A DNA stretch of 43,821 bases from Escherichia phage VerenaMeyer_Bas76: the sequence record PQ850632.1; one strand, 5' to 3'. Positions 10,058-17,162 of this stretch are shown in pieces; position 1 is the stretch's first letter, and each line of letters opens with the position of its first letter. A program made the translations under genes and the position numbers. The notes under the pieces were generated by a model, which was not told the DNA's origin, did no database searches, and worked only from the letters and a program-made list of their open reading frames with translations.

Positions 10058-10554
10058 GTTTCGCGCTTGATGTCTCTAAGTTCGTGGAAAAGGCGAAGAA
10101 GAACCCCGAGAAGGTGATGCGTCAGGTGTCTATCAAGCTGTTTTCCGCTATTATAAAGGCGAGTCCGGTAGATACAGGCCGGTTCCGAATGAACTGGATG
10201 GCCTCTGGCAGTACCCCCGCTTCCGGTACAAGCCGCGGTACTGACCCTAGCGGGGCGAACGCGATAAGCGCTATGGTTTCTGCGGTGTCAGGTTTACCCG
10301 ACTGGAGCGAGTTTACCCTGACAAATAACCTGCCGTATGCGGAAGTTATAGAGTTCGGGGGTTACGCTACTGGCTTCCACGGCCCTAAGCGCCCTTCTAA
10401 CTTAGGCTCTAAATTTGTTGGCCCATTGAGGCCGAAAGCGCCCAGCAGAACAACCACAGACGGATATTCCCTTCAGGCTCCGCAAGGTGTTGTCCGGGTT
10501 AACGTTCAGCGATTCAATAAACTGCTCGAAGAAGAAGCGAGGAAGTATAAATAA
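10054..10554 (+). CDS. neck/tail component, HK97 gp10-like
   Basis: 166 aa. Motif PVDTGRFRMNW is typical of the HK97 gp10 tail-component family. Confidence 0.55.
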   Translation: MSFALDVSKFVEKAKKNPEKVMRQVSIKLFSAIIKASPVDTGRFRMNWMASGSTPASGTSRGTDPSGANAISAMVSAVSGLPDWSEFTLTNNLPYAEVIEFGGYATGFHGPKRPSNLGSKFVGPLRPKAPSRTTTDGYSLQAPQGVVRVNVQRFNKLLEEEARKYK

Positions 10555-10967
10555 TGGGCTACTTTGAGGACTTAACAAAAGCGTTCGATGTTCCGCTGGT
10601 AGCCTTCGGAACCGCCAACGGCATCAAGGTTGCGCTTGAAAACATCGACGCGCCGACGTCAACCGATACGCCGTATCTGGCGAGTTACATGCTACTGGCA
10701 GATACCGAGCAGGCGGATTTGTTCTTCACTGAGCAACGCTCTGGTATTTATCAGGTAGACATTAACTACGCATCGGTGAAAGGTAGCGCGCCAATCAATA
10801 AAATGGCAGACTTACTTAACACGGCGTTTAAAGCAGGTAAGTCATTTTCGCGTAACGACATCTGCGCCGAGGTTCAATCGGTTAGCCTGGGGCCGCTGAT
10901 TGTAGAAAACGGATGGGCCAAACGACCATTGTCAATTAACTTTATTGCATTCACCAAGAGGCTGTGA
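10554..10967 (+). CDS. tail terminator / tail completion protein (putative)
   Basis: 137 aa, ATGA-coupled to the gp10-like gene and precedes the major tail gene. Confidence 0.4.
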   Translation: MGYFEDLTKAFDVPLVAFGTANGIKVALENIDAPTSTDTPYLASYMLLADTEQADLFFTEQRSGIYQVDINYASVKGSAPINKMADLLNTAFKAGKSFSRNDICAEVQSVSLGPLIVENGWAKRPLSINFIAFTKRL

Positions 10968-12136
10968 ATATGGCTACAACTCCTTTTAAGGGCGCGAATA
11001 CCGCGCAATTCTATGTGGCGGAAACTACCCCTGGCGTAACACCGACTAACCCGGTATGGTCGCCGTTGCGTAACACGGGCGGCGTTCCCGCTGTAACCCG
11101 CGATGCACTGACTTCCAACGAACTGGACGGCAGCCGTGAAACTACATCCATCCGAACCGGTAACAAGCAGGTTAGCGGGGAGTATGCCATCGAACTTAGC
11201 TCTCGTAGCCAGGATGATTTCCTTGCGGGAGCGATGACTTCTACGTGGCAAGCTGGGGTAGAGATTACTGGCGCCGAAATTACGGTCGCCCCAGCAGGTA
11301 AAACATTCACCCGCGCTGCCGGTAGCTTCATTACTGACGGTGTAGAAGTTGGCGACCTTATTGCGTTCACCGACTTAACCGGCGACAACGCAAAACCGTT
11401 TATCGTGACCGCGGTTTCCGCTCTGGTAGTTACGGGCGCAGGTATTCAGCACACGCTGACAGCAGAGACAGTAACCACTGACGCAAAAACTGGCGACAAG
11501 CTGGAAACCGGTAACGCGTGTAAGACGTTCTCCATCCTGACGTGGTTCAAGGGCCAGTGTGGTAACCCGGACGCGTACATGCTGACCAAAGGTGTGGAAA
11601 TCTCTGGCTTTACCGTAGAGCAGGCGGTTAACGCCATGGTCACCGGCAGCTTCCCGTTCATCGGCCTGAGTCAGGAGATTCTTACCGCGCCGCCGTCTGG
11701 CTCTGATTTCTCTCAGGTTACGTTCACCGATGAGCCGTTCTCGTCGGTAGATGTGTCGGTGTTCGATGGCTCCACGCCGTTGCGTTGCGATACTCTCACC
11801 ATCACCAACGACAACGGAGCTTCCGCGCAGTTCGAACTCGGTAACAGTAGCGTGGCGTTCGTCGAACGTGGACGCGCAGCTAACACATTCTCTATCTCTG
11901 GCAAGCTGTACGACATGGCGATGATTCAGAAGTTTATCAACGAGCAGCAGGTAGAGATTAACTCTATTCTGGCAGGGGTAAACGGGGCTATGTCTTTCAG
12001 TTTGAAACGTGCAGAGCTTACGGCGGTTACACCTGAGATTGGTGGGCCTGAGTCAATCACTCAGTCCATTGAAGGCCAGGCTACCGGCAATCAGTACCAG
12101 TCGTCTATCGTAATTCAACGTATCACCTACGCATAA
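10964..12136 (+). CDS. major tail (tube) protein (putative)
   Basis: 390 aa, last gene before the tail chaperone and tape measure set. Ser/Thr/Gly-rich. Confidence 0.5.
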   Translation: MNMATTPFKGANTAQFYVAETTPGVTPTNPVWSPLRNTGGVPAVTRDALTSNELDGSRETTSIRTGNKQVSGEYAIELSSRSQDDFLAGAMTSTWQAGVEITGAEITVAPAGKTFTRAAGSFITDGVEVGDLIAFTDLTGDNAKPFIVTAVSALVVTGAGIQHTLTAETVTTDAKTGDKLETGNACKTFSILTWFKGQCGNPDAYMLTKGVEISGFTVEQAVNAMVTGSFPFIGLSQEILTAPPSGSDFSQVTFTDEPFSSVDVSVFDGSTPLRCDTLTITNDNGASAQFELGNSSVAFVERGRAANTFSISGKLYDMAMIQKFINEQQVEINSILAGVNGAMSFSLKRAELTAVTPEIGGPESITQSIEGQATGNQYQSSIVIQRITYA

Positions 12137-12137
12137 A

Positions 12138-12166
12138 ACTAAGGCCCCTTTCGGGGCCTTTTTCTC
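12138..12166. terminator. bidirectional intrinsic terminator (AAGGCCCC-TTTC-GGGGCCTT)
   Basis: Hairpin with TTTTTC on the plus side, sitting between convergent genes 10964..12136(+) and 12165..12395(-). Same family as 4881 and 24196. Confidence 0.65.
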
Positions 12167-12395
12167 ACTCATCAATATTACTTCGATACTCCCGTAACTT
12201 CTCCAGACTTTCAATTGCTTCTGCTAAGTCGGTTCCGGTGTCCTTATGCCCGCGAAGACCCATGCACAATAACTTCTTCAATGCGTGCTGTAGTGCGGGG
12301 TCACGGATGTCGAAGGCACGGAGAACATCGTAAACGTCTACGGTCATAGTGCTGCCGTGAGTGTTTGTCATTGTTCGGTTGTATTTTGAAGTCAT
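12165..12395 (-). CDS. hypothetical protein (76 aa), last gene of the opposite-strand cassette
   Basis: Start overlaps the upstream stop (ATGA coupling with 12392..13522). No recognisable domain. Confidence 0.45.
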   Translation of the reverse strand: MTSKYNRTMTNTHGSTMTVDVYDVLRAFDIRDPALQHALKKLLCMGLRGHKDTGTDLAEAIESLEKLREYRSNIDE

Positions 12396-13522
12396 CCCAG
12401 CATCTCCGGTGAAATAGTTAAACGTGCGACCTCGCCATATTCGGCGCTATAAGTAATTACATTTGCACTACGGCCTGACATCCACCCGCCGCGGGAGGCA
12501 TAGGCGTCTTTAGCCGCTAAGGTGCGGTGTTGCTCAACAATCATGTTACGGCTTTCTACAATCTTCTGGTGGTGCAGGTGGCCTACGTGGGCGTAGCTAT
12601 AGACACTCTCACCGAACGCTTTGCGGAATTTGGCAATCATAACCGGTTCGATAGCATCGAATCGCGCCTTATGCCCGTGGTGAAAGAACAACGTCGTTTT
12701 TCCGTGTTGCACCATCTTGTAAACATCCGGCGACGTATCGACAATCACTCGGCTGTCGTTCGAATATAAAACTGTGAACATTTCAGCCAGCCATACAGAG
12801 CCTACAGGGTCATGGTTCCCCTGTACGATAAGCAAGCGAACATTTTTATGTTTAACCAGTGCCATATCTACAACACGGCGTACCATACGAATCATGTAGC
12901 GGACGAGTTTCTGGTAGCGAGTGTCTGCGTCCAACACGTGACGCGACTCGGGTGTAACGGCATCCAGACTATCGAAGTGCGCGAAATCACCCAGCAGGTT
13001 AATAACTCCTGTTCCTGCATCCGGTGCTTTCTGAAACGCCGCGTCGAACCAACGAGAGAACAGGTCTTCCGCAATCTTTATATCCCAGTCGTCGCCGCTC
13101 TCGTCGGCCCAGGCAAGCATACCGAGATGGAAATCAGATACCGTGTAAAGATTGAGTAGCTTGTCGTCGCGTTTGGCTCGAGTCGCTTTAGCCGGCGCAA
13201 CTGGCGTAATCTCTGACTTCATGCCTTCAATCACGGCTTTCATCAACTCGACCTGACGTTCAGCGTCGGTGTCTGTCTTAACCCATTGCAACTTAGTATT
13301 GCCGAACTCGTCTACCAGAGACGACGTCCCTTTAATCTTGTAGCCGTCTGGGACAAGGTGGCTAACGTCACGCCCGTGGCCTACACCTTTCTTAGCCAGC
13401 TTCGCTTTACGGATACGAATAACTCGGTCTGAGATGCCGTATTTACGGGCGATGTCTACATTCTTCATCCCGGCGTTCAATTCTTCCTGTAACTGTTCGT
13501 CGGTTATTTTCTTCTGGGCCAT
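12392..13522 (-). CDS. HTH-domain protein fused to calcineurin-like metallophosphoesterase
   Basis: 376 aa. N-terminal HTH (VDIARKYGISDRVIRIRKAKL). Ordered metallophosphatase motifs: SDFHLG, GDFAHFD, GNHD, HHGH, GHLHH. Confidence 0.7.
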   Translation of the reverse strand: MAQKKITDEQLQEELNAGMKNVDIARKYGISDRVIRIRKAKLAKKGVGHGRDVSHLVPDGYKIKGTSSLVDEFGNTKLQWVKTDTDAERQVELMKAVIEGMKSEITPVAPAKATRAKRDDKLLNLYTVSDFHLGMLAWADESGDDWDIKIAEDLFSRWFDAAFQKAPDAGTGVINLLGDFAHFDSLDAVTPESRHVLDADTRYQKLVRYMIRMVRRVVDMALVKHKNVRLLIVQGNHDPVGSVWLAEMFTVLYSNDSRVIVDTSPDVYKMVQHGKTTLFFHHGHKARFDAIEPVMIAKFRKAFGESVYSYAHVGHLHHQKIVESRNMIVEQHRTLAAKDAYASRGGWMSGRSANVITYSAEYGEVARLTISPEMLG

Positions 13523-13587
13523 GCTTACTTCCTCGTGTTTAGGATTTGTCCTATTTAACCACAGTGGATTCCTTTAAATAAAGGCAA

Positions 13588-13914
13588 CTATTTACTTTCT
13601 GCGCCTATCGCCCACCCTGTCATTACCATTTGCAGACGGGTGGCTGTCAGTAGGCTATAGAAAGCATCTCCGTTTTTCTCTACCGAACGTATCACTGTGT
13701 AGGTTACGGCCTGCGGGGGTAGGCCCGATTTACCGACATCTACGGCGGCCTCGCATTCACGGACTGTGGAGTCCTTAAATGCCTTTACAATAGTAGGGTC
13801 GGCTTTATCAAGCACACCAGAAGTCATAAGAACAGATTCACTAAATACCTGTTCGCACGGGGCTCCAAAAGTAGCAAAAGACATAAAACCCAGAGCTAGT
13901 ACTAATTTACGCAT
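13588..13914 (-). CDS. secreted/periplasmic small protein with signal peptide (108 aa)
   Basis: N-terminus MRKLVLALGFMSFATFGA is a classic signal peptide. ATG preceded by GAGGAA. First gene downstream of promoter copy 2. Confidence 0.55.
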   Translation of the reverse strand: MRKLVLALGFMSFATFGAPCEQVFSESVLMTSGVLDKADPTIVKAFKDSTVRECEAAVDVGKSGLPPQAVTYTVIRSVEKNGDAFYSLLTATRLQMVMTGWAIGAESK

Positions 13915-13942
13915 AATTATTTCCTCAGTAAGTTACATGTGA

Positions 13943-13971
13943 ATAGTACCCTATTATATTGGGGTGTGCAA
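13943..13971 (-). promoter_or_regulatory. sigma70-type promoter TTGCAC-N17-TACTAT (early promoter family copy 2)
   Basis: Minus-strand reading TTGCACACCCCAATATAATAGGGTACTATTCA, identical over about 30 nt to the copy at 5139..5167. Confidence 0.55.
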
Positions 13972-14078
13972 GTAGTGTGCTAGAATAAGTTTGCGCCTAG
14001 TGTCGCACACGAAAAGCGGGTGGTTCCCGCCTGGCGCATTAACCATAACCAGTAACCTCTTAACCAAAGGACTAAAGA

Positions 14079-14495
14079 ATGAAACTTTCTGATTTCTATT
14101 TTGCCGACCGCCACGCCGCCGGTACTAAAATGCCTATCCTTCTGCCCAGTGGTAAAGATTCCGGTGAATGGTTGCAGGTCATCGGCCCCGATTGTGACGC
14201 TGGTGTTCGTGCGGGCCGTGCCTACACAACGGCAATTCGACGCCTTACGGAAGAACTTGCGCCATTAGATAAAGAGTGCGAGGCGCTGAATAACTGGGCG
14301 CGCTATAATGATGAGAAGGGCTGGCGGGTGATGGACCTGAACAAGCAGCTTGCCGTGGAAATCGTCACCGGTTGGTCATTCGACGAACCATTCAGCAAAG
14401 AGGCGCTTGCTAACCTGTTCGACCAGTACAGTGGGTTGGCAGAGGCCGTAGTTAAGCATCACACCGATAGCCGCGAGAAACTCTCGGAAAAGTAA
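14079..14495 (+). CDS. tail assembly chaperone (G-like)
   Basis: 138 aa, immediately upstream of the tape measure gene. The -1 frame stays open from about 14480 to 14857, allowing a G-T style fusion. Confidence 0.6.
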   Translation: MKLSDFYFADRHAAGTKMPILLPSGKDSGEWLQVIGPDCDAGVRAGRAYTTAIRRLTEELAPLDKECEALNNWARYNDEKGWRVMDLNKQLAVEIVTGWSFDEPFSKEALANLFDQYSGLAEAVVKHHTDSREKLSEK

Positions 14496-14857
14496 AAGCG
14501 CTGTATGAATTTGCGCAATGGTGCTTTGTCGACCGCCACAAACGTAAGCAATTCGACGACATCGCGGCGGGCCACCAGGCGGCTTTGATTGCAATGGGCG
14601 TGATTAAAGAACCGCAGATGAAAGAAGCGACGGGGCCGGAATGCCCCGTTTCTCTTATCGACGTGTTCGAGAAATACCGTGCCATTAAATTCCTACAGCG
14701 CGAAACAGATGATACTATCGTTATAATCCCGCGCGATGCGCTCAAATGGCAAGATTTGGTAGCGTTTCGTGATGTCGCCGGTTACGGCATAAGTTTGTTC
14801 GAAGCCGAGGTTATCATGGGCTTAGACGGAATATTTGAGGGCAGAGAAGATGGCTGA
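14486..14857 (+). other. putative -1 programmed frameshift extension (T part of a G-T fusion)
   Basis: Sequence GGAAAAGTAA at the end of the G-like ORF. The -1 frame has no stop from about 14480 to 14857 and ends overlapping the tape measure start. The heptamer is not the canonical X_XXY_YYZ, so the shift site is uncertain. Confidence 0.4.
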
Positions 14858-17162
14858 TACGGCTTCCCTAATTGCCAGAGTAAAAACAGAAGGCGCTGAT
14901 GTAGCCGCTAAACAGCTTGACGCTATGGCGGCATCCGCAGACCGTGCGGACACATCCGTAAACAAACTAACGCCGGATGTTAATAAAGTAAACTCCGCTA
15001 CGTCTAAAGCGGCTTCTGACGGTTTCGCTAAATTCCGTAACGCCGCCGGGCAGGTAGGCTTCCAGGTGCAGGACATGGTCGTCCAGTTGCAGTCCGGCAC
15101 GTCTGCATTCGTAGCAATCGGGCAACAAGGCTCTCAGCTTGCGGGTGCTTTCGGCCCTGGTGGTGCGGTGCTTGGGGCTGTAATTGCTCTTGCGTCAGCT
15201 ATCGGTGGCGTCTTGTACAAATCGCTAACAGAGGCGGAGGGGAGTTCAAAAGACCTCGAAGCCGCGCAGAAACAGTTAAAAGACACCTTCCAGCAAACAG
15301 CATCCGGCTCTCTCGAACTGACAGACGGCCTTATCCAGCTTACCCAAATCAGCCGAGAAGCGGCGGAGACTCAGCTCGCTCTGGCTAAGGCTAACGCAGA
15401 CCTTATCGCGCAGCAAACAGCTAAAGCCGTTCGAGAGGACGCAGAATCATGGGAGACATGGAAAGCCTCCACAGCATCGGCTATTAGCCAGTATGATGCG
15501 CTGGTTTCTAAGGGTGCTGATGTAGGCGACACGTTAGAAAAACTCGGTGGCACTTACGAGGGTAATATCGTAGGCGTCAACATGCTGGCACAGAATATAG
15601 CAGAGCTTAGTAGTAAGTTCGGGGTTAACCGTGACCAGGCGCTGGAGATGATAGCGGCACAGAGCGCGTTTAATAAAGAGCCGACCGCTGAGAATGCCCG
15701 CCGCATCGCCGATGTGTTTACCGACTGGCTTGGTAACACTAAGCAGTTGAACCCGGAACTTATCCGCCTGACAGACAACGCCAACAAAAACGCCACGGCG
15801 CTGGAAAACGCAGAGAAGTCGGCAAACGCGGCGGCGGAGGCTCAAAAGAACCTCGGTCGTAACGTTAACTCAACCACGCAGAGATTCCAGGAACAGAACG
15901 AAGCTATCGTCAAGAATCAGCAAATCGCCATCTTAAGCGACCGTGAGCGTATCAGGGCACAAGCTGAACTGGATAAGCAGGCGTTCGCTAAACGTGAAGC
16001 TGTCACCAAAGAACAGATAGCCGCGTATAACGCTGCCCGTGACGCGGAAGCGCAGCAAGACATAGCTCGCATTGACAAGACCGAGAAAGAGAAGGCAGAC
16101 CGCGAGGCTAAATCGAACGAGAAACGTCTGGCGGCGCAGGCCAAACGCGAAGAAACGGCGGCGCAACGTCAGAAAAAAGCGGCGGAAGATTTCCTCGCTA
16201 CTGTCGACCGAACAACCGGAGACGAAATTTCTCGCATCACGGCGGCAGAAGAGCAGAAACTGGCGAAACTTGAAGAGTTTAACCGCGCCGGAACAATAAG
16301 CCAGCAGCAGTACGAAAACGCCAAAACGCAGATTATGCTCACCGCCGAGCAGGCCCGACAGGAAGAACTGGATAAGAAAAGAAAAGAAGCCCAGGAAAAG
16401 CAGCAGAAAGGCGACGACTTCATGGCACAGATTATGGGCCAGAACGCTACTGAGCTTGAGCTTCTCGACATCCAGGAACAGCAGAAGCTGGCGGTCGCGG
16501 ATAAGTATCGAGAGCAGGGGCTTATTAACGAGGAACAGTATCAGGCGGCACTTAACGCTATAAATGAGCAGTATGCTACGAAGCGCGCCGACGCTTTAGG
16601 TAATTCTTTCGGTGACATGGCGGCTAATGCTAAAACAGCATTTGGCGAGGCGTCCACCGCGTATAAAGCGTTTGCTATCGCACAGGCAACTATCGCCACG
16701 TACACATCGGCTATCGAGGCATATAAGTCAACGGCTGCCATCCCTGTTGTCGGCCCATTCCTGGCGCCGGTTGCTGCGGCTACTGCCGTTGCCGCGGGGC
16801 TGGCTAATATCGCCAAAATCCGCTCGGCGCGTGAGCAGGGCGGGCAGTTATCCGCCGGGCAGGCTTCTACTATCGCAGAACGCGGTAAACCAGAAGTTAT
16901 TATGCCTGCTGGTGCATCGCGAGTACGCACTGCACAGCAGATGAAAGAAATTATGGGGCAAAACGGGTCTTCTTCCGGCCCATCTAATGTTACCATCGTA
17001 AACAACACGAGTTCTCAAATCGGCAACGTATCCACTGAGCAAGATGATGAAGGCCGTTTGCGTATCATCATAGAAGAGCAAGTTGCTGCATCTTTGCAGA
17101 ACAGCAACAGCAAGATTAGCAAGGCCCGCAAAGCCACAAGAAATGCGCCGGGGTTTAAATAA
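14850..17162 (+). CDS. tail tape measure protein
   Basis: About 770 aa. Long Ala/Gln/Glu/Lys-rich coiled-coil, hydrophobic Gly/Ala-rich segments near the C-terminal third, located after the chaperones. ATG 14850 preferred over TTG 14835. Confidence 0.85.
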   Translation: MADTASLIARVKTEGADVAAKQLDAMAASADRADTSVNKLTPDVNKVNSATSKAASDGFAKFRNAAGQVGFQVQDMVVQLQSGTSAFVAIGQQGSQLAGAFGPGGAVLGAVIALASAIGGVLYKSLTEAEGSSKDLEAAQKQLKDTFQQTASGSLELTDGLIQLTQISREAAETQLALAKANADLIAQQTAKAVREDAESWETWKASTASAISQYDALVSKGADVGDTLEKLGGTYEGNIVGVNMLAQNIAELSSKFGVNRDQALEMIAAQSAFNKEPTAENARRIADVFTDWLGNTKQLNPELIRLTDNANKNATALENAEKSANAAAEAQKNLGRNVNSTTQRFQEQNEAIVKNQQIAILSDRERIRAQAELDKQAFAKREAVTKEQIAAYNAARDAEAQQDIARIDKTEKEKADREAKSNEKRLAAQAKREETAAQRQKKAAEDFLATVDRTTGDEISRITAAEEQKLAKLEEFNRAGTISQQQYENAKTQIMLTAEQARQEELDKKRKEAQEKQQKGDDFMAQIMGQNATELELLDIQEQQKLAVADKYREQGLINEEQYQAALNAINEQYATKRADALGNSFGDMAANAKTAFGEASTAYKAFAIAQATIATYTSAIEAYKSTAAIPVVGPFLAPVAAATAVAAGLANIAKIRSAREQGGQLSAGQASTIAERGKPEVIMPAGASRVRTAQQMKEIMGQNGSSSGPSNVTIVNNTSSQIGNVSTEQDDEGRLRIIIEEQVAASLQNSNSKISKARKATRNAPGFK

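Follow-up and report, generated by a model that had tools for sequence, protein, structure and literature searches.

Escherichia phage VerenaMeyer_Bas76 (PQ850632.1), of which a stretch of 43,821 nucleotides (nt) forms the window analysed here, carries a G-like tail assembly chaperone gene followed by a start-less reading frame, T, in the -1 frame. We propose that the two are joined by the usual tail-chaperone -1 frameshift, acting on the tetranucleotide A_AAG beside the G stop codon and, in our judgement, probably driven by a long-range RNA helix that pairs a segment just downstream of the stop with a second segment inside T. The first of these segments is a conserved element that was absent from a preliminary description of the locus and that is probably the main stimulator of the shift. 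The features on which the argument turns are the following.

14079-14495 (+): G-like tail assembly chaperone, 138 amino acids (aa), frame 0, stop TAA at 14493-14495
14471-14495 (+): overlap of 25 nt, open in frame 0 as well as in frame -1
14486-14492 (+): candidate shift site G_GAA_AAG, conserved core A_AAG at 14489-14492
14493-14495 (+): frame-0 stop directly 3' of the shift codon, TAA or TAG in all relatives
14492-14857 (+): T segment, frame -1, VKALYEF...EGREDG, 121 aa, stop TGA at 14855-14857
join(14079..14492, 14492..14857) (+): predicted GT fusion, 259 aa, from translation
14498-14511 (+): 5' arm of the predicted long-range helix, GCGCUGUAUGAAUU, from invariance and pairing
14688-14701 (+): 3' arm of the predicted long-range helix, AAUUCCUACAGCGC, within the T coding sequence, 190 nt further on

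Evidence for a G-T fusion

Relatives for comparison were taken from IMG/VR and comprised about 60 distinct sequences with G-protein identity down to ~44%. Column conservation was computed on 43 distinct contexts and codon usage was counted on up to 39 distinct sequences. A motif pattern scan of IMG/VR returned 119 matches, 69 of them with a T-like open reading frame (ORF) and eight representing new contexts.

The junction reads GGAAAAGTAA at 14486-14495, with the G-frame codons tcg gaa aag TAA. A TAG at 14468-14470 closes frame -1, which opens at 14471 and stays open as far as the TGA at 14855-14857 (129 codons); frame +1 closes 13 nt past the G stop. Because frame -1 opens only at 14471 and frame 0 ends at 14495, the shift must fall within 14471-14495, and a reading of this 25-nt overlap gave no in-phase slippery motif other than G_GAA_AAG, which is the sole candidate. 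The preliminary description had noted a -1 frame open to 14857 and a junction, GGAAAAG-TAA, without a canonical heptamer, and the sequence bears out both: G_GAA_AAG (14486-14492) does not follow X_XXY_YYZ, a pattern typical of the G/G-T class and not obligatory for it.

In the 43 contexts, third-position variability follows the phase of frame 0 as far as 14483 and that of frame -1 from 14506 on, and the coding frame changes exactly at the junction. Protein-level conservation of the T frame begins at its first codon (V.ALY.FA.W.(F/Y)V....K.KFD.I..H.AAL) in lineages only 50–57% identical, and its first ~30 codons are kept as protein with no conserved start codon. The peptide ALYEFAQWCFVDR is encoded in the T frame upstream of any start codon, and the predicted fusion junction is ...KLSEK|VKALYEF.... 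Profile searches matched the G protein to Pfam PF08748 Phage_TAC_4 (35.9 bits, cut-off 21.1) and to phrog_313, and the T segment to PF23812 Phage_TAC_18 (64.5 bits, cut-off 27). A further profile of 259 positions, phrog_15027, aligns with G at 1–138 and with T at 137–259 (E 1e-65 and 2e-62); its length is exactly that predicted for a slip on AAG (138 + 121 aa). The G counterpart in Escherichia phage AnnaReinhart_Bas75 is annotated as a tail assembly chaperone, and the GenBank record of fFiEco02 already carries a joined frameshift coding sequence. A real -1 G-T fusion at this junction, as the preliminary description expected, is strongly supported by the frame switch, the conserved start-less N-terminus of T, the Pfam and PHROG matches, and the joined coding sequence of fFiEco02.

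It seems very unlikely that T is a separate protein with its own start, made with no frameshift at all. Among deposited phage genomes, 493 (356 Salmonella, 102 Escherichia) encode a T protein of this family. Most annotate it as a separate hypothetical protein or chaperone, and AGG does lie 5 nt ahead of TTG 14585 in our window. The annotations are inconsistent across these records, ranging from ‘hypothetical protein’ to ‘tail assembly chaperone’ with a CTG start (Bas75, at 14501) or an internal ATG start (XY2, equivalent to ATG 14594), and to the joined coding sequence of fFiEco02. Our search of the open-access literature for a described Kagunavirus or Guernseyvirinae frameshift signal yielded only the remark in the Shashou genome announcement, “no canonical slippery sequence” (PMC6776780), which also fits a separate T. 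Against separate initiation, frame -1 shows protein conservation and third-position periodicity over the 30 codons before 14585, and TTG 14585 and ATG 14594 are unconserved, being missing in several lineages. Three lineages (L028, L088, and L093) lack any ATG, GTG or TTG within the first 232 nt of T. The CTG at 14501 encodes the invariant Leu of V.AL and is not preceded by a Shine-Dalgarno sequence, and the fused profile phrog_15027 aligns across the junction.

The slip site across relatives

Every relative with A_AAG also has TAR (TAA or TAG) directly after it and a -1 ORF of 359–365 nt past the G stop, an arrangement that exceeds chance and holds down to ~44% G-protein identity. Positions 14489-14494 (A AAG TA) are invariant in the 43 contexts, 14488 varies (1.1 bits), and 14495 is A or G, so that only TAA and TAG occur as the stop. 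Relatives have GAA, GTA, GCA, GGA or TCA as the codon ahead of AAG, and the base preceding that codon varies as well; their heptamers include G_GTA_AAG, N_GCA_AAG, and G_TCA_AAG. Since the preceding codon is free to vary, selection keeps A_AAG with its adjacent stop rather than P-site re-pairing, and we regard the site as effectively a tetranucleotide A_AAG beside a stop, not a degenerate heptamer. A_AAG lies in phase with the G frame at 14489-14492, so tRNA-Lys could re-pair cognately to AAA. Re-pairing of GAA to GGA in this genome keeps two Watson-Crick pairs and a central G·U, and this partial P-site re-pairing is incidental. A TAA or TAG directly after AAG forces the first full T-frame codon to GTA (ATA in one distant clade), and Val is encoded by GTA at the junction in 39/39 distinct sequences. 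Columns 5' of the site are variable in the relatives' alignment, with no kept motif that would represent an upstream Shine-Dalgarno-like stimulator.

The distant clade (L106-L110, ~37% T identity) has the canonical A_AAA_AAA with TAA or TAG directly next and ATA as its T-frame codon. Its junction is found near position 1190–1290 of each locus. Its run of seven A makes transcriptional slippage conceivable in that clade as well, and runs that long might support it. As an account of the site in our window, slippage of RNA polymerase on an A run in place of a ribosomal shift is highly improbable: only four A occur in a row here (14488-14491), far below known lengths, and the conserved stop and 3' element would have no role.

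Two other relatives, L049 and L052, have canonical heptamers (T_TTT_TTC and A_AAT_TTT) several codons ahead of the stop. The lambda-type G_GGA_AAG was found only in L042 (IMGVR_UViG_2974654489_000001), a Jerseyvirus-like sequence, near 1908–1914; its close relatives have G_GAA_AAG, making this a single-base natural variant that could be used as a natural comparison of efficiency.

A predicted long-range helix downstream of the site

The sequence GCGCUGU (14498-14504) begins 5 nt past the final A_AAG base. It does not vary, even at 14500 and 14503, which are synonymous third positions, and frame 0 is non-coding there. A perfect complement of the 5' arm core, UACAGCGC, lies at 14694-14701. In this genome the predicted pairing joins 14498-14505 with 14694-14701 (8 bp), is interrupted by a U-C mismatch at 14506/14693, and resumes between 14507-14511 and 14688-14692 (5 bp). 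The helix would close a loop of 176 nt here and of 110–176 nt across relatives.

The 3' arm is located at stop+203 in 15 lineages, where it offers 11–16 nearly contiguous pairs. In nine other lineages the stop+203 register is empty, and an invariant CAGCGC at stop+129 gives 7–10 pairs. No A_AAG lineage lacks both partners, and all eight new contexts from the IMG/VR scan fit the +129 or the +203 scheme. In the A_AAA_AAA clade the 5' arm, GCCCUGCUUGAU, differs in sequence, is equally far from the slip site, and pairs at ~stop+63. The 5' arm thus keeps its distance from the slip site while the position of the 3' arm differs between clades. The two arms in our window are codon-phase reverse complements, GCG CTG TAT GAA TTT (A L Y E F) against AAA TTC ATA CAG CGC (K F I Q R); the silent third positions of each arm pair with the first positions of the other, which would explain the frozen synonymous sites.

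Several tests bear on this pairing. Unguided RNAalifold on a gap-free alignment of 40 sequences returned the long-range helix as the only consensus structure, a plain helix with no conserved local stem-loop. In a 17-pair version, 84% of cells were paired in register, compared with 20–50% when the partner was slid by 1–3 columns. Cells changed on both sides numbered 12 against 3.7 in shuffles, and 0/500 shuffles reached 12. Pair 14506/14693 occurs as U-A (21), C-G (4), U·G (4), and G-C (2), and pairs 14505/14694 and 14507/14692 show one double change each. There were 26 G·U cells and one A·C cell, an excess which argues for a sense-strand RNA helix and not a DNA or antisense element. In the minimum-energy fold of 14486-14712 the helix is the closing stem (z = -3.04; 1/200 shuffles as stable).

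Codon choice points the same way. The arms have a synonymous codon diversity of 0.21, compared with 0.48 elsewhere (Mann-Whitney p = 7e-4). At and around the arms the codons are GTA 39/39, GCG 38/38, CTG 39/39, ATA 21/21, CAG 39/39, and CGC 36/39, whereas other Ala, Leu, Ile, and Arg codons of the same ORF use 3–6 synonyms. At stop+129 the nucleotides CA-GCG-C are kept across six amino-acid contexts (PAQ, AAR, TAQ, TAR, TAP, and AAQ). Amino-acid changes preserve pairing, as in the exchange of Ile and Val with UAU and UAC and in L111, where a U·G pair accommodates a change of Q to R.

A number of points weigh against a helix-driven shift. Duplex energies compared with other 21-nt windows of the same loci rank in the top 1–25% (median 7%; top 17% here), which is a weak signal, and the helix of this genome contains the internal U-C mismatch. 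Most helix columns never vary, so that covariation rests on few lineages, and because the sequences are related the shuffle counts overstate significance and are not to be read as probabilities. The GCGC core is self-complementary and so has more possible partners; L074 and L191 have alternative duplexes. With a loop of 110–176 nt, formation of the helix may be slow, and the first ribosome behind the polymerase may reach the site before the 3' arm exists. Genes of this class, moreover, do not always require a stimulator, since the lambda G-T shift needs no downstream structure.

The unexceptional duplex energies and mostly invariant columns would also suit an unlikely alternative in which the frameshift is real and uses A_AAG and the stop only. 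The complementary segments would then serve mRNA stability or translation control of T and the tape measure, or would be a by-product of peptide motifs (A-L-Y-E-F and K-F-I-Q-R) with in-phase reverse-complement codons, and both arms do encode conserved residues. This account meets difficulty in the synonymous positions frozen in both arms, at amino acids that elsewhere use 3–6 codons, and in the CA-GCG-C at stop+129 that persists despite amino-acid change. Further evidence against it comes from the movement of the 3' arm between clades at constant 5' arm spacing, and from pairing that survives the Ile/Val and Q-to-R changes. In E. coli, A_AAG is the most shift-prone tetramer, and alone it gives 0.147% against a background of 0.112%, rising to 5.6% only with a strong 3' pseudoknot (PMC4066793). 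A_AAG alone being near background, a stimulator is expected.

Other candidate structures were examined and rejected. For a local stem-loop or pseudoknot just past the slip site, the fold of 14480-14620 was no better than shuffles (z = +0.61). A local GCGC/GCGC hairpin is not conserved, and upstream partners for GCGCUGU amounted to scattered, non-conserved CAGCG matches. Rfam 15 covariance models run over 13900-14900 with E up to 1 placed no family over the junction, the only match being an int-alpA RNA at 13990-14054.

A separate G+C-rich hairpin of eight pairs (GACGGGGCC GGAAUG CCCCGUU) lies at 14629-14650 (+), within the 176-nt loop, where it overlaps the conserved GPECP codons. A terminator scan flagged it and the minimum-energy fold contains it, and its GGGGCC...GCCCC is nearly invariant in many relatives.

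Proposed mechanism and timing of the slip

The open frames, the conservation and the switch of coding frame are observed. The course of events that we infer, including the slip and its efficiency, the part played by the helix, and the two roles of the stop, would be as follows. A minority of the ribosomes translating G would slip back one base at G_GAA_AAG (14486-14492), with tRNA-Lys re-pairing from AAG to AAA and the tRNA on the preceding codon re-pairing in part here (GAA to GGA) and scarcely in relatives. Shifted ribosomes would read GUA AAA GCG... in the -1 frame to 14857 and produce the 259-aa G-T fusion, and the remainder would terminate immediately at the UAA at 14493-14495. The slip would most likely be driven by the helix with its 5' arm at 14498-14511 and its 3' arm at 14688-14701. 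If GAA occupies the P site and AAG the A site, 12 nt would separate the first P-site base from the beginning of the helix, which would place the helix at the mRNA entrance. Slippage by -1 during translocation classically involves this geometry, with a 5-nt spacer after an A-site AAG and a helix at the entrance. At A_AAG sites, stimulatory structures ~5–8 nt downstream raise the shift to a useful level; the predicted helix, which begins at 5 nt and has an unexceptional energy, may act in this way. A second chance may come one step later, with tRNA-Lys in the P site and UAA in the A site.

We hypothesize that the adjacent stop has two roles. It may supply a slow-to-decode A site, and it may prevent non-shifted ribosomes from entering the 176-nt loop, allowing the helix to persist; the 110–176 nt between the arms would be read only by the few shifted ribosomes.

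A different timing would leave the site and the product unchanged. At a ‘shifty stop’ the slip would come one step later: peptidyl-tRNA-Lys on AAG in the P site, with UAA in an empty A site awaiting release factor, would move singly back to AAA, and the helix would be secondary or irrelevant. We consider this account possible but rather doubtful. The stop stands directly 3' of AAG in every lineage, forcing the rare Val codon GTA in 39/39 sequences, and the adjacency is retained even in the A_AAA_AAA clade. The codon before AAG is unconserved, as expected if tRNA-Lys alone matters, and stops adjoining shift sites are known as stimulators, for example the PEMV stop 3 nt past its shift site (PMC5009743). 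A further example is given by the ‘shifty stops’ reportedly described by Weiss et al. in 1987. However, with AAG in the P site the helix would lie 2 nt past the A-site codon with several base pairs already unwound, judging from the general geometry of programmed -1 frameshifting. Conservation of the stop could also be explained by its keeping the loop free of ribosomes, or by its simply ending G, and early and late slips are not mutually exclusive. The preliminary description had suggested that the slip might occur at AAG with the stop in the A site. The strict conservation of the stop after AAG fits that proposal. An earlier and a later step (AAG in the A or the P site) are both compatible with the sequence and would yield the same protein, and the position of the helix fits the earlier step at least as well.

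Comparison with known frameshift signals

The lambda G/G-T frameshift was reportedly described by Levin et al. in 1993, and its conservation in long-tailed double-stranded DNA phages is attributed to Xu, Hendrix and Duda in 2004. In lambda the canonical G_GGA_AAG lies a few codons before the G stop. As in lambda, the gene pair in our window lies downstream of a tail tube gene and immediately upstream of the tape measure gene, its second ORF is start-less, in the -1 frame and ends at the tape measure start, and the slip codon AAG is read by tRNA-Lys, with a minor fusion sharing all of G as the expected product (the lambda tail chaperone frameshift is summarised in PMC5009743). Unlike in lambda, the first half of the heptamer is degenerate and unconserved here, the stop is always adjacent, and a conserved helix is predicted 5 nt downstream.

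Shift sites of the type found in IS1222 and in cdd use nearby stem-loops, pseudoknots or an upstream Shine-Dalgarno-like element, and the cdd shift site is close to the end of its ORF. Both belong to the A_AAG or NNA_AAG class, with G_CGA_AAG in IS1222 and A_CGA_AAG in Bacillus subtilis cdd (PMC5009743). The site in our window would resemble these in that tRNA-Lys slips alone from AAG to AAA and the P-site codon re-pairs poorly; efficiency at the IS1222 and cdd sites depends on the 3' stimulator. It differs in having no conserved upstream element and in its proposed stimulator, a helix closing a loop of 110–176 nt.

Long-distance stimulators are known from luteoviruses, dianthoviruses, and umbraviruses, which use pseudoknots between a bulge and a distant loop (BYDV-type), and from insertion sequence (IS) elements with a second component 44–104 nt 3'; T7 gene 10 has an unexplained element >200 nt 3' of its shift site (PMC5009743). 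The predicted helix is like these in that far-3' sequence would complete a structure abutting the ribosome, and T7 gene 10 is likewise a phage structural gene with an imperfect heptamer (G_GU type). In contrast to the bulge-to-distant-loop and ALIL types, RNAalifold gave no conserved local stem-loop, and the segment next to the shift site would itself be one strand of a plain helix. The 3' arm here, unlike in the known long-distance cases, is within coding sequence that would be read only by shifted ribosomes. Imperfect G_GA and G_GU heptamers occur in insect-specific flaviviruses, umbraviruses, mesoniviruses, cardioviruses, and T7 gene 10 (PMC5009743). G_GAA_AAG shares their logic of partial P-site re-pairing; the P-site codon of its relatives nonetheless changes freely (GTA, GCA, and TCA), so partial re-pairing is not what selection keeps.

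The G/G-T class, the A_AAG class, adjacent stops, and long-distance stimulators in other systems are all known already. For their combination in a phage tail gene, with a plain helix abutting the slip site and a distal strand in the shifted ORF that moves between clades, we found no description in the open-access literature, and an earlier one elsewhere is possible. It is quite conceivable, though far from assured, that A_AAG, an adjacent stop and a plain long-range helix make up a distinct and undescribed phage -1 signal. In such a signal the 5' arm would be fixed 5 nt out and the 3' arm would lie 60–200 nt downstream in the shifted ORF, having moved between at least three positions. The stop would keep the loop ribosome-free so that the helix re-forms between shifts. 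If true, this would be a natural case of a minimal A_AAG made useful by an adjacent stop and a long-range helix, and the conserved position of the stop would have a simple rationale.

The signal is small and E. coli-compatible, and frameshift predictors that look only for heptamers could be extended to include it. Many of the phages that carry T are studied for therapy and biocontrol. Because the comparative evidence locates the fusion, the GenBank records of T could be corrected.

Locus and gene order

The source genome is evidently a Kagunavirus (Guernseyvirinae). A 1,051-base query around the junction was 99.9% identical both to Bas75 and to other Kagunavirus genomes. The neighbouring features are as follows.

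10554-10967: tail terminator
10964-12136 (+): tail tube protein gene, Pfam PF18906 Phage_tube_2 (131.6 bits), upstream of the chaperone module
12165-13914 (-): three reverse-strand genes, between the tail tube gene and G
directly upstream of G: intergenic region of 164 nt
14850-17162 (+): tape measure protein gene, phrog_1538 (E 2.9e-194), start taken from the Bas75 annotation

The position of the gene pair is typical of the G/G-T class, with the tube gene before it and the tape measure gene after it, and with the three reverse-strand genes intervening. The tape measure ATG (14850) overlaps the end and stop of T (ATGGCTGA), and translation of the tape measure may be coupled to the end of T through this overlap. 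The tape measure ORF can be extended to a TTG at 14835; GenBank relatives annotate the start equivalent to ATG 14850.

The int-alpA RNA match (RF02996) at 13990-14054 (+) is full length, with 35.8 bits, exactly the gathering score, and E 1.7e-5. It sits in the 164-nt intergenic region just 5' of G, ahead of the Kagunavirus tail-assembly genes.

The three genes at 12165-13914 (-) break an otherwise co-directional tail module, an arrangement also annotated in Bas75, fFiEco02, and XY2. They comprise a 76-aa ORF, a 376-aa metallophosphoesterase annotated as ‘DNA repair exonuclease’ (phrog_704), and a 108-aa protein (phrog_14165) whose N-terminus, judged by eye from the sequence, resembles a signal peptide.

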